Sequence record: SRR22947725_3677
Length of the DNA: 64,000 nucleotides
Direction: 5' to 3' (one strand)
Shown piece by piece: positions 1-3,678 of this stretch. Both the position numbers and the translations under genes were made by a program. Position 1 is the stretch's first letter; every line of letters starts with the position of its first letter. The notes beneath the pieces were generated by a model. The model saw only the letters and a list, made by a program, of their open reading frames with translations. It was not told where the DNA came from and did not search any database.

Positions 1-35
1 GAATCCAGCGCGTCTACCAATTCCGCCACCAAGGC
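1..35 (-). tRNA. tRNA-Leu, 5' half; the rest lies beyond the window edge. Anticodon starts with C (CAA or CAG)
   Basis: Reverse complement reads GCCTTGGTGGCGGAATTGGTAGACGCGCTGGATTC: acceptor 5' strand, type II (Leu) D-arm GGCGGAATTGGTAGACGC, and the start of the anticodon arm. Confidence 0.85.
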
Positions 36-36
36 A

Positions 37-285
37 TTAACTATTTTGATCTCTAATGTGTCGCAATTTTTGCTTTCCAACACCAGATTTCCAATATTTT
101 TCTCTTTCCCGCGCCGCCAATCGATTCGCACATAGTTCAGTATAAATTAACTGAAATGGTACGTAGGGACTCGTTGTTTTTTCCTTACCTGAATTATGCT
201 GTGTCAATCGAATAGAAACATTTTTTGTCATACCGACATAAATATAATTTCTATTAACACTTGATATGGCATAAACCCAAATCAT
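37..285 (-). CDS. Small stand-alone GIY-YIG nuclease (UPF0213/SLX1-like)
   Basis: Motifs VY...YVG...R..QHN...E (WVYAISS-YIYVGMT-RLTQHN-AREREKYWKSG). ATG at 285 preferred to the TTG at 294. Confidence 0.9.
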   Translation of the reverse strand: MIWVYAISSVNRNYIYVGMTKNVSIRLTQHNSGKEKTTSPYVPFQLIYTELCANRLAAREREKYWKSGVGKQKLRHIRDQNS

Positions 286-290
286 CTTGT

Positions 291-354
291 CCAAAATTTC
301 AATTCAGCGCGCCTGCCTGTCGGCAGACAGGTCTACCAATTCCGCCACCAAGGC
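291..354 (-). pseudogene. Second, partial tRNA-Leu copy (5' half through a degenerate anticodon arm) with a 20-bp insertion
   Basis: 331-355 is identical to 12-36 (25 bp). Similarity resumes at 301-310 after the insertion. No T-arm or acceptor 3' strand follows. Confidence 0.85.
312..331. repeat. 20-bp imperfect palindrome CCTGCCTGTCGGCAGACAGG inserted in the tRNA copy
   Basis: Absent from the copy at 1-35. On the minus strand it folds as CCTGTCTG-CCGA-CAGGCAGG, an 8-bp stem with one G:U pair. Confidence 0.85.
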
Positions 355-364
355 AAATGGATGG

Positions 365-372
365 CAAATGTA
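365..372 (-). promoter_or_regulatory. Bacteroidota -7 promoter box (TACATTTG) upstream of the partial tRNA copy
   Basis: Exact TAnnTTTG match 10 nt upstream of the partial tRNA start at 354. Confidence 0.65.
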
Positions 373-463: not shown

Positions 464-1405
464 ATGGGTAAAACAACTATAGATTCGAAGATATTTGCCT
501 GTACGCAAAGTACTGTTTTGGCTAAGGAAATTGCCAAGCAATACGGCGTGCCTTTAGGGAACATATTATTTTCACGTTATAGTGACGGAGAATTCCAACC
601 TTCTTTCGAAGAATCTGTACGAGGATCTCGAGTTTTCCTTATTGGCTCTACGAATCCTTCTTCAGAAAACTTGATGGAAATGTTGCTTATGCTCGATGCC
701 GCCAAACGCGCATCTGCACGCCACATTACTGCCGTAATGCCTTATTTTGGATGGGCACGTCAAGACAGAAAAGACAAACCACGAGCTCCCATTGGAGCAA
801 AACTTATTGCAAAGCTTCTTGAAACTGCAGGTGCAACACGCATCATTACCATGGATTTGCACGCCGATCAAATTCAAGGATTTTTCGAAAAACCTGTAGA
901 TCATTTGTTTGCTTCTACATTATTTCTTCCCTATTTACGTTCCCTCAATATTGATGACCTAACGATAGCCTCGCCCGACATGGGAGGTTCTAAACGTGCA
1001 TACGCCTATTCAAAATATTTGGAAAGCGATGTGGTGATTTGTTACAAGCAACGTAAAAAAGCGAATATCATTTCGCACATGGAACTTATTGGAGAAGTAA
1101 AAGGTAAAAATGTTGTCCTTGTAGACGACATGGTTGATACCGCTGGAACACTTACCCATGCGGCTGATCTTATGATCGAACGTGGTGCAAAAAGTGTTCG
1201 TGCTGTATGTACGCATCCCCTATTATCAGGTGAAGCTTATGAGCGTGTTGAAGCGTCAAAACTCACAGAGTTAATCGTAACCGATTCGATACCACTTCAA
1301 AAAGAAAGTAAAAAAATTAAAGTATTGAGCTGTGCTCAATTGTTTGCCGAGGTCATGTACAATGTACACCACAATGAGTCGATCTCAGGCAAGTTTGTTA
1401 TGTAA
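464..1405 (+). CDS. prs: Ribose-phosphate pyrophosphokinase
   Basis: YSDGE, PYFGWARQDRK, DLHADQIQGFF and VDDMVDTAGT motifs. Confidence 0.97.
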   Translation: MGKTTIDSKIFACTQSTVLAKEIAKQYGVPLGNILFSRYSDGEFQPSFEESVRGSRVFLIGSTNPSSENLMEMLLMLDAAKRASARHITAVMPYFGWARQDRKDKPRAPIGAKLIAKLLETAGATRIITMDLHADQIQGFFEKPVDHLFASTLFLPYLRSLNIDDLTIASPDMGGSKRAYAYSKYLESDVVICYKQRKKANIISHMELIGEVKGKNVVLVDDMVDTAGTLTHAADLMIERGAKSVRAVCTHPLLSGEAYERVEASKLTELIVTDSIPLQKESKKIKVLSCAQLFAEVMYNVHHNESISGKFVM

Positions 1406-1417
1406 TAAATATAAAAT

Positions 1418-2044
1418 ATGAAATCAATTACCATCAACGGATCTAAAAGAGAAAGCGTGGGCAAGGTAGCTACCAAAGCCCTACGTAATGCTGGAGAGGT
1501 TCCTTGCGTGTTATACGGAGGGGAAGAACCAGTACATTTTGCAGCAGACGAACGTGTGTTTGCAAAACTAGTATACACCCCCAATGCGCATACGGTGGTT
1601 ATCGACTTAGGCGATAACGTTACGTTTAATGCCATTTTACAGGATATTCAGTTTCATCCCGTATCAGATAAAATTCTTCACATAGACTTTTATCAGTTAT
1701 TTGATGACAAGGAAGTATCTATGAATATTCCGGTCGTTATTAAAGGAGCGGCTCCTGGAGTTTTAAACTCAGGAGGTGTTTTGAGGAGAAACAAACGCAA
1801 ACTTCGCGTACGTGCGCTTCCTGCAAACTTACCCGACGAAATTGAAGCAGATATTTCCTCGCTTGAGCTAGGAAGTAAGCTTTATGTAACCGAATTAGCA
1901 GATGAAAGCTTTAAATTTTTACACCCAGACAATACCGTAGTATGTCAAGTACGTACTTCGCGAACTTCATTGAAAGTTGAAGTTGAAGAAGGTGAAGAAG
2001 CTGGTGCTGAAGGCGAAGAAGCAACAGAAGAAGCTGCAGAATAA
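1418..2044 (+). CDS. rplY: 50S ribosomal protein L25/Ctc
   Basis: [24 protein letters not shown], acidic C-terminal tail; follows prs. Confidence 0.96.
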
Positions 2045-2065
2045 AGACGCTTTTTAAGATAATTT

Positions 2066-2099
2066 AGAGCATCTCGCTTCACAGTGAGATGCTTTTTTT
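2066..2099 (+). terminator. Rho-independent terminator after rplY
   Basis: AGCATCTCGC-ttcaca-GTGAGATGCT followed by a T run. Confidence 0.8.
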
Positions 2100-2113
2100 A
2101 TTTTTACATCCTG

Positions 2114-2743
2114 ATGAAATGTTATTTCCCTTTTTTTTCATCTGCCACGAAAAAAGAAATGGCTATGAAATCCTATCTGATTGTTGGTCTTGGTAACATT
2201 GGAACCGAGTACAAAGGCACAAGGCATAATATTGGCTTTGATGTCCTAGACGCCCTCGCTTCCGACAAAGAAGCAGCCTTTGAAACCTTGCGCCTAGGAG
2301 ACGTGGCTTCCTTTCGGCAAAATGGCAAAACCGTTTACTTACTCAAACCCAATACCTTTATGAATCGCAGTGGGAAAGCGGTGCGCTATTGGATGCAACA
2401 AAAAAAGATACCGCTTCAAAATATCCTTGTTGTAACCGATGATATTCACTTAGATTTTGGGTATTTACGTTCACGTGCTAAAGGTTCCGCAGGGGGTCAC
2501 AACGGGTTAAAAGATATTTGTGTTCAGCTAAATACGCTCGATTATGCCAGGCTGAGGTTTGGTATTGGTGCTGGTTTTAGCAAAGGCAGGCAAGTCGATT
2601 TTGTACTTCAGCCATGGAATACTGAAGAAAAACAAGAGCTCCCCTTTGCCGTAGATAAAGCTGCACAAGCTGTAGCATGTTTTGTGACTAGTGGTATTCA
2701 AACTACCATGAATACGTTTAATGGTAATACACTTGACACCTAA
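2114..2743 (+). CDS. pth: Peptidyl-tRNA hydrolase
   Basis: LIVGLGN, TRHNIGF, KPNTFMNRSG, GSAGGHNGLK. Start uncertain (2114, 2159 or 2165); the ORF-track start at 2084 lies inside the terminator. Confidence 0.95.
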   Translation: MKCYFPFFSSATKKEMAMKSYLIVGLGNIGTEYKGTRHNIGFDVLDALASDKEAAFETLRLGDVASFRQNGKTVYLLKPNTFMNRSGKAVRYWMQQKKIPLQNILVVTDDIHLDFGYLRSRAKGSAGGHNGLKDICVQLNTLDYARLRFGIGAGFSKGRQVDFVLQPWNTEEKQELPFAVDKAAQAVACFVTSGIQTTMNTFNGNTLDT

Positions 2744-3678
2744 TGAGTATCATTAAAGATAGCGTATCGTTCAATCCCAAGAAAAAAACAATCGTTACCG
2801 TGGGTACTTTTGATGGGGTTCACCTTGGTCATCAAAAAATCATTGAACAGCTTGTGGTAAGAGCGCAAGAAAAAGAGTGTGAAGCCACATTACTTACTTT
2901 TGACCCACATCCCAGAAAAGTACTCCAGCCCGATGCCCCAATTGCATTGATACAAACCCTAGAAGAACGCGCTGCAACCCTTGCCGAATTGGGGTTAAAA
3001 CATCTTGTTGTTCAACCCTTCACCCGTGCATTTTCTCAGTACAGTGCCAAAAAATACGTCAAGGAGATCTTAATCGGCCTTTTGAATATAGAGGGAATTA
3101 TTATCGGTCATAACCATAGGTTTGGGAAAAACCGAACAGCAGACGTTAACGATTTAAAACGCTTTGGAGAGGAGTTTGGATTTTCAGTAACTCAAATCGA
3201 TGCTGAAGCATTAAACGATATTTCTATCAGTTCAACTAAAATTAGAACATCGTTAAAAGAAGGGGATGTCGTGACGGCAAATGCGTTTTTGGGACATCCA
3301 TTTACGCTTTCGGGAAAGGTTGTTGAAGGAAAACAAAAAGGGAGGACTATTGGCTTTCCAACAGCGAATATTGCCGTTGCCTCTCCAGACAAAATAATCC
3401 CCAAGCAAGGCGTTTATGCTGTAAGGGTTGGCATAAAAAACAATCAGCACCTAGGCATGATGAATATCGGCACGAACCCGACAGTGAATGGGCATCAAAC
3501 GAGTATTGAGGTACATATTTTTGATTGGTCGGGGGATCTATATAACCAAACTCTGGAGGTTGCACTTATAGACCGCATTCGTGATGAAATTAAATTTGAT
3601 TCGCTAGATGCATTAAAAAACCAATTGGAAAAAGACAGGGGGTCTATTGCGGCTGCCTACAAACCTTTACCTTTGTAA
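2743..3678 (+). CDS. ribF: Bifunctional riboflavin kinase/FAD synthetase
   Basis: GTFDGVHLGH, ISSTKIR, GRTIGFPTAN, EVHIFD. Confidence 0.96.
   Translation: MSIIKDSVSFNPKKKTIVTVGTFDGVHLGHQKIIEQLVVRAQEKECEATLLTFDPHPRKVLQPDAPIALIQTLEERAATLAELGLKHLVVQPFTRAFSQYSAKKYVKEILIGLLNIEGIIIGHNHRFGKNRTADVNDLKRFGEEFGFSVTQIDAEALNDISISSTKIRTSLKEGDVVTANAFLGHPFTLSGKVVEGKQKGRTIGFPTANIAVASPDKIIPKQGVYAVRVGIKNNQHLGMMNIGTNPTVNGHQTSIEVHIFDWSGDLYNQTLEVALIDRIRDEIKFDSLDALKNQLEKDRGSIAAAYKPLPL

Follow-up and report, generated by a model that had tools for sequence, protein, structure and literature searches.

A stretch of 64,000 nucleotides (nt) from sequence record SRR22947725_3677, hereafter the window, carries at positions 1-372, on the minus strand, a 319-bp unit that is wedged between a tRNA-Leu(CAA) gene and its promoter. 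The unit consists of a partial copy of the start of this tRNA, which is interrupted by a 20-nt hairpin, and of a gene for a small GIY-YIG nuclease. Sequence comparisons indicate that it belongs to a widespread and apparently unpublished family of small, selfish-looking cassettes that lie inside partial tRNA duplications in marine Flavobacteria. The insertion between the tRNA-Leu gene and its promoter appears to be made harmless by the duplicated tRNA start. In the reading that we prefer, to which we assign a probability of about 0.55, the unit is a recombinase-free selfish cassette: an Ssn-like hairpin nuclease and its own hairpin enter and leave tRNA genes by way of homologous recombination, and they are co-transcribed with the tRNA.

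Structure of the cassette locus

Read from the promoter towards the tRNA, the locus is composed of the following parts, of which the last one lies outside the cassette.

372-365, minus strand: -7 box TACATTTG of the tRNA-Leu(CAA) gene, read from the sequence, 10 nt upstream of the partial tRNA copy
354-332, minus strand: partial tRNA-Leu(CAA) copy, bases 1-23 (acceptor 5' strand, D-stem 5' strand and D-loop), equal to bases 1-23 of the tRNA of the relative G001 and situated inside the exact repeat
331-312, minus strand: hairpin H, CCTGTCTGCCGACAGGCAGG, 20 nt, between tRNA bases 23 and 24 at the 3' edge of the D-loop
311-305, minus strand: continuation of the partial copy, CGCGCTG, tRNA bases 24-30, matching the G001 tRNA
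304-286, minus strand: cassette leader AATTGAAATTTTGGACAAG, 19 nt, before the start codon
285-37, minus strand: GIY-YIG nuclease gene, 82 codons plus stop (ATG at 285, stop codon at 39-37), catalytic domain only (PF01541)
36-1, minus strand: a single T at 36, then the first 35 nt (35-1) of an uninterrupted tRNA-Leu(CAA), running off the window
464-1405, plus strand: prs (ribose-phosphate pyrophosphokinase; Pfam PF13793, PF14572 and PF00156), the divergent neighbour that marks the locus

The unit is delimited by an exact 25-bp repeat, positions 12-36 being identical to positions 331-355 at a spacing of 319 bp. By a rough reckoning, the odds of a chance match of this length inside 372 bp are about 1e-10. 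Moreover, the comparison of the window with the empty site of G001 gives an insert of 319 bp with exact borders. Both the 25-bp identity and the order of the parts on the minus strand had been noted in an original prediction made from the sequence alone, and both were borne out. The box TACATTTG fits TAnnTTTG, which we take to be the consensus of the Bacteroidetes -7 box, and the same box with the same spacing precedes the intact tRNA at the empty sites of congeners. The partial copy, which reaches base 30 in the window, extends to about base 42-44 in the relatives L033, L046 and L064.

The second tRNA begins 1 nt past the nuclease stop codon, and positions 35-1 are identical to bases 1-35 of the tRNA-Leu(CAA) that was called by ARAGORN in G001. 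A full tRNA-Leu(CAA) was called by the same program at the matching place in the filled congeners L086, L087 and L089. The uninterrupted tRNA that had been predicted downstream of the gene thus holds for its first 35 nt and in full for three congeners; in the window itself it runs off the edge. ARAGORN made no call for a truncated or partial tRNA within the window. A search of positions 1-600 against Rfam (E <= 10) yielded chance-level matches only (SL2, n00280 and CLRN1-AS1) and no tRNA-intron or ribozyme family. Furthermore, no terminator-like site was found in positions 1-500, and no second -7 box was seen on reading the sequence between the tRNA promoter and the tRNA. This suggests that, in the layout of the window, the tRNA is probably transcribed through the cassette, the nuclease gene being co-transcribed with it.

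The locus was also recovered from other sequencing runs. A 775-nt contig of run X3, which stems from another study, covers positions 9-783 with zero differences, and overlapping contigs in the runs X2 and X4 span the cassette as well. Since an independent contig spans the whole unit, the duplication is not the assembly artefact that the original prediction had allowed for. A 169-nt contig from the RNA library X14 covers positions 162-330 with zero differences, which is a weak hint because DNA can occur in such libraries. The 29-nt sequence across the junction between the end of the open reading frame (ORF) and the tRNA had no exact match in metagenome contigs. Among the other joints in the runs, one in X4 from position 35 to 328 was set aside because only 27 letters lie on its shorter side, and the remaining ones are tRNA-Leu contexts of other organisms.

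Filled, decayed and empty sites in congeners

For the survey of the locus in the genus, 25 same-genus genomes were searched with the prs region and 22 loci were fetched, 20 of which have a tRNA beside prs. Three of these 20 loci are filled, five hold remnants and 12 are empty. The original prediction had pointed to the comparison of empty and filled prs-adjacent sites in relatives, and present, decayed and absent states of the cassette were indeed all seen. The filled sites of G013, G004 and G005 carry an intact cassette, the nuclease of which is 74-77% identical to the window protein. G023, G025, G003, G014 and G008 have lost the partial tRNA copy, the hairpin and about two thirds of the ORF from its start; these remnants keep about 25 decaying codons ahead of the intact tRNA. 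The empty site of G001 shows the same promoter, which is directly followed by an intact tRNA-Leu(CAA). When G001 is compared with positions 331-1400 of the window, the identity amounts to 96% and the match ends exactly at the repeat. G002 is empty even though, in the promoter region, it hardly differs from the three filled genomes.

The cassette family at tRNA genes

With an alignment of 24 homologues (A1), 582 relatives were found in contigs representing one genome per species. The best 80 of the 582 were kept with 1.2-kb flanks and typed with ARAGORN and scripts; the counts given for them include related loci, which are not independent. A same-strand tRNA lies directly beside the homologue in 76 of the 80 loci, and the recombinase-free unit that had been predicted from a single locus thus recurs at tRNA genes. 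In the remaining four loci, no adjacent tRNA was called (N-masking, contig end or longer tandem arrays), and all four contain the hairpin.

The layout of the window, referred to as the 5' type, is found in 61 of the 80 loci and is defined by a same-strand tRNA that starts between -25 and +150 nt from the stop codon. The tRNA is Leu-CAA in 60 of these loci and Ser-GGA in one, and the median gap between stop codon and tRNA is 4 nt (at most 20 nt in 53/61). All 61 loci have at least a part of the tRNA 5' portion upstream of the ORF: 37 have uninterrupted bases 1-24 with up to two mismatches, 12 have a copy that is split by further hairpins, and 12 have one part only. The hairpin consensus was found within 220 nt in 58 of the 61 loci. 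The acceptor stem of the partial copy tracks the local tRNA, for instance as GCCTTGG, GCTCGAG, GCTCAAG or GCCGAAG. The remaining 15 of the 80 loci show a mirror layout (3' type), in which the intact tRNA is followed by the ORF and then by a copy that runs from about base 45 to the tRNA end; this copy bears the same hairpin, either within the T-loop or at its edge. The last 16 nt of the tRNA are copied in 10 of the 15 mirror loci, and eight of them have the hairpin by consensus. The original prediction of an element that enters behind a tRNA promoter and restores the tRNA downstream was thus partly borne out: an intact tRNA is always left, but the 15 mirror loci show that the promoter position is not obligatory.

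The same prediction had interpreted the sequence that follows the hairpin as a decayed anticodon arm. It is probably a leader of the cassette instead, as a TGAAAT-like motif is found in the 45 nt ahead of the ORF in 33 of the 61 loci of the 5' type and in 6 of the 19 other loci. Furthermore, a genuine anticodon arm precedes that position in L033, L046, L048, L055, L056 and L064.

The upstream neighbour is prs in 73 of the 84 loci examined, and therefore the cassette occupies the same locus across the family. Related cassettes have been found at Leu-TAA, Leu-GAG, Ser, Ala and Pro tRNAs. For instance, G001 contains a single relative with 46% identity, which has a window-like layout at tRNA-Ala(GGC) and a different hairpin. 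The tRNA-Ala(GGC) gene of G001 (L003, 1734-1810) is apparently used by two kinds of elements, the GIY-YIG cassette on its 5' side and, on its 3' side, a 455-residue ORF (1773-3140, minus strand) that resembles a large serine recombinase and ends in or next to the 3' end of the tRNA. The Pro-type cassette of G050 (L151, about 1400-1810) is composed of an almost full-length pseudo-tRNA-Pro, an ORF with a 69-residue GIY-YIG domain and an intact tRNA-Pro. This pseudo-tRNA bears two hairpins that differ from each other: the first follows base 9, and the second replaces the T-arm. Nuclease clades that differ from that of the window thus carry other hairpins, as in the Ala-type cassette of G001 and the Pro-type cassette of L151.

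As a control, all PF01541 matches in five cassette-bearing genomes were inspected. All six small ORFs that score at least 138 bits against the A1 profile lie at tRNA-Leu(CAA) together with the hairpin. By contrast, 12 of 14 more distant small paralogues have no tRNA in a 3.2-kb piece, and one of the 14 is a Pro-type cassette. The idea that every small GIY-YIG gene is linked to a tRNA was rejected on these 12 paralogues. The control counts suggest that the association with tRNA genes is a property of particular clades and not of all small GIY-YIG genes. The distribution of the family is patchy: of 201 genomes drawn evenly from the order, only 13 have a close relative (E <= 1e-20).

The hairpin is the best-conserved part of the cassette

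Hairpin H has a 6-bp stem (CCTGTC/GACAGG), the loop TGCC and the tail CAGG. It occurs once in the window and not at all in 100 shuffles of it. An identical 20-mer is present at 42 of 97 hairpin sites, across genera in which the nucleases are only about 65% identical, and 11 of the 97 sites hold the perfect palindrome CCTGCCTGCCGGCAGGCAGG. Upstream of the ORF, the hairpin points with the gene in 62 cases and against it in nine, and it is symmetric in 11. The idea that the hairpin is an insertion scar was not upheld: no other part of the cassette is conserved so well, and the hairpin is fixed in orientation. Stem positions 5 and 12 covary (T-A 61, C-G 28, other 8), with the reservation that the sites share ancestry and thus represent few independent events. 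The covariation supports a predicted 6-bp stem CCTGYC/GRCAGG with a 4-nt loop and a CAGG tail, and folding of the DNA chooses the same 6-bp stem. The 70-nt leader folds no better than shuffled sequences, either as DNA or as RNA (z -0.8 to -1.0). The significance of the hairpin rests on its conservation and not on its folding energy.

When the insertion points are mapped onto the local tRNA, 60 sites fall between bases 23 and 24, nine at bases 8-10 and about 13 in the T-loop or at its 5' edge. All of these points are either unpaired positions or loop edges in the cloverleaf.

Genome-wide, the hairpin is rare, five genomes having one to six copies each and a reversed-pattern control none. Among 12 further hairpin sites, one is situated inside another cassette and four adjoin tRNA genes without a GIY-YIG ORF in the piece, three of the latter lying within ORF-less tRNA fragments; the other seven are taken up below. 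Such ORF-less scars, which are made up of a partial tRNA copy and the hairpin and lack the nuclease gene, were also noticed in G044 (L120, about 790-850) and upstream of the intact tRNA in L021, L076, L077 and L082. In one example, the 3' part of a tRNA-Gly with the hairpin in its T-loop lies about 60 nt past an intact tRNA-Gly. The Polaribacter-like genome G045 has three solo hairpins (L114, L115 and L116) with about 40 nt of similar flanks (...GGAAGNTACA-hairpin-TCTGAC/TCTAAC...), which are distant from any tRNA or GIY-YIG gene and resemble a small dispersed repeat that carries the hairpin. In G001, which is without a Leu-type nuclease, one hairpin of the window type is intergenic on contig C19 (L002, about 1500-1530), and no tRNA was called in 3 kb.

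The nuclease consists of a catalytic domain

The window protein matches PF01541 at residues 5-76 with 61.9 bits (cut-off 22.6; E 7.1e-17). The residues Y5, Y16, G18, R26 and E62 are invariant in the 24 homologues of alignment A1; presumably, they are the Tyr of the GIY motif, the Tyr and Gly of the YIG motif, the conserved Arg and the metal-binding Glu of the catalytic site. The AlphaFold2 model shows a single domain with a predicted local distance difference test score (pLDDT) of 95.2, and neither Pfam nor the model gives a second or a DNA-binding domain in the 82-residue protein. The best matches of the model in Foldseek are the UPF0213 structure 1zg2 (E 9e-4), Slx1 nuclease domains (TMq 0.62-0.69, root-mean-square deviation about 2.2 A) and the catalytic domain of I-TevI (1ln0). 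At E <= 1e-10, a profile search of 1.84 billion representatives returned 3,374 clusters, and at E <= 1e-30 it returned 11. Judged from these numbers, the window protein is one clade in a very large group of small GIY-YIG proteins. The NCBIfam models gave sub-threshold matches only, PADLOC a weak partial match to PDC-S14 (E 6e-4, 26 residues) and PHROGs no match to the window protein.

Gene callers often start the ORF too far upstream, so that it takes in the hairpin and the partial tRNA copy. The resulting "proteins" have 100-140 residues, with homology that starts at residue 20-60. Among the database entries concerned are P0009, P0013, P0016, P0050 and many of P0121-P0269, and the window's own entry has 125 residues. 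In the filled congeners L086, L087 and L089, the start codon is GTG and not ATG (VYWVYAISS...).

Age and movement of the cassette

Between the window and the three filled congeners, the ratio of non-synonymous to synonymous substitution rates (dN/dS) of the nuclease is 0.07-0.12 with saturated dS. Therefore, the protein has been kept working over the long term. The three filled congeners were also compared with each other, a test that covers 83 codons of a gene located 190 bp from prs. In the pairs formed by L086, L087 and L089, prs shows 35-43 synonymous differences in about 205 sites and the nuclease gene 0-2 in about 53 (Fisher p 0.0004, 0.002 and 0.014 for the three pairs, which are not independent). 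The recent differences in the nuclease are mostly non-synonymous (1-5 vs 0-2 synonymous). A sliding comparison of L086 with L089 gave 94-99% identity in prs, 99-100% from the prs 5' end through the cassette and about 50% past the tRNA. The sequences suggest that the cassette and a short flank share a much more recent ancestor than prs. As the cassette is much younger than prs, it was probably moved between these congeners by recombination. Beyond position 2949 of L086, the synteny with the reverse-complemented L089 stops exactly at the 3' end of tRNA-Leu(CAA). Such a break would be expected if different islands or rearrangements lie downstream of this tRNA.

Tandem units are present in seven of the 80 loci, and in six of them the DNA of the pair is 96-100% identical (85% in the seventh). 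An origin of the arrays by repeated independent invasions was mostly rejected on the grounds of these six pairs. Over 63 loci, the pairwise identities of nuclease and prs are uncorrelated (Spearman 0.03), the nuclease reaching a plateau at about 65% whatever the distance of the hosts.

Proposed mechanism and alternative explanations

The Ssn family (SsnA of Neisseria meningitidis; CDD cd10448) is described in the main text of its characterisation as a group of single-domain GIY-YIG single-strand DNases (Chenal et al. 2025, PMC11893778). According to the same text, the enzymes bind a directional hairpin repeat (NTS/SRM), cut single-stranded DNA a few bases upstream of it and are inactive on double-stranded DNA and RNA (PMC11893778). 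In the preferred reading of a selfish cassette, the window protein may likewise cut single-stranded DNA at or near the hairpin, and the cut could stimulate recombination by which the cassette is spread or maintained. The partial copy (bases 1-30 in the window) would serve as the outer, tRNA-derived homology arm and the intact tRNA as the other arm, and homologous recombination of the host would use them to copy the unit into a tRNA-Leu(CAA) allele that is empty. Tandem units would be amplified by unequal exchange, and recombination between the repeats of 23-30 nt would result in exact loss. Either layout, 5' or 3', might arise by a single crossover of a tRNA gene with a segment of partial tRNA, hairpin and ORF, depending on the part of the tRNA that is carried. 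Cuts in the loops of single-stranded tRNA-gene DNA with a cloverleaf fold might lead to the capture of new tRNA targets. Silencing of the nuclease gene would cost the host its tRNA. A more far-reaching version of this proposal is tentative and, in our opinion, rather doubtful: the cassettes could be a minimal class of mobile elements of about 320 bp without recombinase, in which a hairpin-guided single-strand nuclease cuts the unpaired loops of cloverleaf-folded tRNA-gene DNA, repair makes a partial duplication with gene and hairpin, and the 5' layout, being wedged between tRNA and promoter, cannot be silenced without losing the tRNA.

Several observations weigh against the selfish cassette. 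Its weakest point is that an SsnA-like enzyme would be expected to cut its own hairpin-bearing allele and not the empty one, which leaves the benefit for the spread unexplained. The proposed activity and the insertion chemistry are inferred. Empty sites can arise by precise loss through the repeats without any gain, and the joint of an empty allele was absent from the runs X2, X3, X4 and X14, of which contigs were searched that drop rare variants. In the three young pairs, the low synonymous divergence continues through the intergenic region and takes in the first 100-150 nt of prs, so that the cassette could have been included by chance in an ordinary tract of recombination. The plateau at about 65% fits old vertical descent with saturation as well as shuffling, and no pair among the 63 loci has a near-identical nuclease in distant hosts. 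No relatives that could point to a vector were found in viral contigs. Seven of the 12 further hairpin sites have no tRNA or GIY-YIG gene nearby, as if the hairpin had a life of its own. Moreover, the likeness to the Ssn system is incomplete in two respects: the published SRM motif has no match in the window and none in 81 loci (-300 to +550 around the ORF), and the cassette hairpin is present in one to six copies per genome and not in hundreds (PMC11893778).

Alternatively, the nuclease could be a domesticated host gene, serving for instance in the Ssn-like restriction of incoming single-stranded DNA or in the maintenance of the tRNA locus; it would have been fixed beside tRNA-Leu(CAA) in an ancestor of the family and lost where the sites are empty. 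The long-term purifying selection (dN/dS 0.07-0.12), the constant place between prs and tRNA-Leu-CAA across many genera (73/84 loci), the lack of near-identical copies in distant hosts and the likely co-transcription from the tRNA promoter agree with this idea, as does the host-level effect of Neisseria SsnA on transformation (PMC11893778). However, a fixed host gene is hard to reconcile with a close relative in only 13 of 201 sampled genomes of the order, with five remnants and 12 empty sites among 20 congener loci, with the tandem copies and with related cassettes, which occur in two mirror layouts and at Leu-TAA, Leu-GAG, Ser, Ala and Pro tRNAs. Moreover, in three congeners the cassette is of younger age than the gene that flanks it. 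We consider domestication unlikely; the patchiness, the remnants and the young age of the cassette favour a selfish nature. A classical homing endonuclease, which would cleave the double-stranded intact tRNA-Leu gene of cassette-free genomes, the hairpin merely destroying the site in the partial copy, could also explain the presence and absence of the unit at one fixed site and the tract of near-identity around it, which resembles co-conversion. Indeed, the GIY-YIG enzyme SegB of phage T4 is encoded in a tRNA gene cluster (PMC2330249). Yet a filled locus retains the complete, unaltered tRNA after the ORF; as the site is not destroyed, a carrier would cut itself. The protein is an 82-residue catalytic domain without DNA-binding domain, and the sequence and orientation of the hairpin are conserved far beyond the need of mere disruption. 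We regard this explanation as quite improbable.

At the level of RNA, the partial tRNA and the hairpin could form a tRNA-like leader for the processing, stability or translation of the nuclease mRNA, in which case the hairpin would act in the transcript and the DNA would not be self-mobile. The strand bias of the hairpin (62 vs 9), its restriction to loop positions, which would spare a tRNA-like fold, the almost full-length pseudo-tRNA with two hairpins in the Pro-type cassette and, weakly, the RNA-library contig of X14 can be cited in favour of such a device. It is nevertheless improbable, because the hairpin lies downstream of the ORF in the mirror layout and occurs alone away from genes and tRNAs, the 70-nt leader does not fold better than shuffled sequences and no Rfam family matches. 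The remnants, the tandem units and the young age would be left unexplained, although an RNA device could coexist with a selfish cassette. Finally, the duplication might be a by-product of an integrase-bearing island beyond the edge of the window, or an artefact of the assembly. The DNA to the left of the edge is not in the data, and tRNA genes often serve as sites of integration. In G001, a large serine recombinase lies directly at the 3' end of tRNA-Ala, and the DNA past tRNA-Leu differs between congeners. However, the duplicated 5' part is closed within 319 bp between promoter and tRNA, empty sites lack exactly this unit, the closed unit recurs in 61 loci and an independent contig spans it without differences. 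An island beyond the edge, which the original prediction had envisaged as a possible explanation, is thus at odds with the closed unit and the exact empty sites, and we regard this last possibility as extremely improbable.

Implications

If the selfish cassette is real, it would rank among the smallest autonomous-looking genetic elements of bacteria and would do without integrase or transposase. In nature, the newly described Ssn-type single-strand nucleases would then act as the engine of a selfish element, and tRNA genes would provide a defined natural target context for them. The family would offer many natural pairs of protein and hairpin with differing specificity, which could be of practical interest for single-stranded DNA tools. 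It would also account for an oddity of genome annotation, namely small genes for a "GIY-YIG nuclease family protein" beside tRNAs, orphan tRNA halves and over-extended ORF calls. Moreover, the cassettes have a bearing on the evolution and duplication of tRNA genes and on their role as recombination hotspots.

Comparison with known systems

Integrase-borne islands and prophages use tRNA genes as landing sites, which they restore via a duplicated segment; they encode a recombinase of the tyrosine or serine type, and it is the 3' part of the tRNA gene that is duplicated. By contrast, the cassette has 319 bp, a single ORF of 82 codons, no recombinase and a duplication of the 5' bases 1-30. An integrase-borne island is excluded by the size and content of the unit as read from the sequence. 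In fungal mitochondria, mobile endonuclease ORFs insert in an essential gene, bring a replacement for the gene end and leave a dead partial copy. The cassette has in common with them that the host gene is kept working by a duplicated end. However, the mitochondrial ORFs target protein-coding genes of an organelle, are not known to have a cognate hairpin in the partial copy and encode DNA-binding parts. The elements of the IS200/IS605 and REP/RAYT types also combine a small gene with a cognate DNA hairpin and act strand-specifically on single-stranded DNA, for which they employ HUH enzymes. In contrast to these, the cassette encodes a hydrolytic GIY-YIG enzyme and not an HUH transposase, and it does not have two hairpin-bearing element ends. 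To our knowledge, a GIY-YIG nuclease is unable to rejoin DNA by its known chemistry. The discussion of the Ssn study also cites the IS200/IS605 and REP/RAYT systems (PMC11893778).

The SegB-type homing endonucleases are larger enzymes with DNA-binding domains. Like the Seg enzymes and I-TevI, the cassette is present in some congeners and absent from others, with degeneration at one site. The occupied locus of filled congeners still has the whole tRNA sequence, and immunity by disruption of the site is not evident from it. With T4 SegB, the cassette further shares the location of a GIY-YIG gene among tRNA genes, an inheritance that is tied to flanking homology and the presence or absence between relatives (PMC2330249). 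However, the target of SegB-type enzymes is the double-stranded DNA of the cassette-free relative, and they are not known to involve a partial tRNA duplication or a conserved hairpin. In the literature outside subscription journals and closed bioRxiv supplements, we found no published account of a GIY-YIG gene that lies, together with a conserved hairpin, in a partial duplication of a tRNA, in agreement with the earlier proposal of an undescribed system.

The Ssn system differs from the cassette in the context of the hairpin, which in the cassette lies inside a partial tRNA copy. The main text of the Ssn study does not contain the word tRNA, and in 12 of its 14 supplementary files it occurs only 10 times, always in the gene-description table of Supplementary Data 2, where the two displayed occurrences are a gidA description (PMC11893778). 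In Supplementary Data 4, Robertkochia marina, Maribacter arenosus, Dokdonia pacifica, Galbibacter orientalis and Algibacter luteus are positive for an SsnA homologue by both criteria, tblastn (E < 1e-10) and cd10448, and Aquimarina intermedia is positive by psiblast only (PMC11893778). These six species carry cassettes, and their genomes hold 2-7 small GIY-YIG paralogues, so that the homologue of the table may be any of these. The same table shows no enrichment of the SRM in the cassette species (0.35-1.2 fold) (PMC11893778). On the other hand, the main text describes single-domain GIY-YIG proteins of 80-100 residues, to which the window protein with its one domain and 82 residues corresponds, and in both systems the gene is paired with a directional, sequence-conserved hairpin of 20-50 nt and different protein clades correspond to different hairpins (PMC11893778). 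The authors of that study liken the NTS-ssnA-NTS layout to a mobile element (PMC11893778). A hairpin-directed single-strand nuclease would fit a protein that consists of the catalytic domain only better than the classical homing model does. Thus, when the cassette protein is set beside SsnA by description and not by sequence alignment, the Ssn enzymes appear to be its closest characterised relatives in terms of working likeness.

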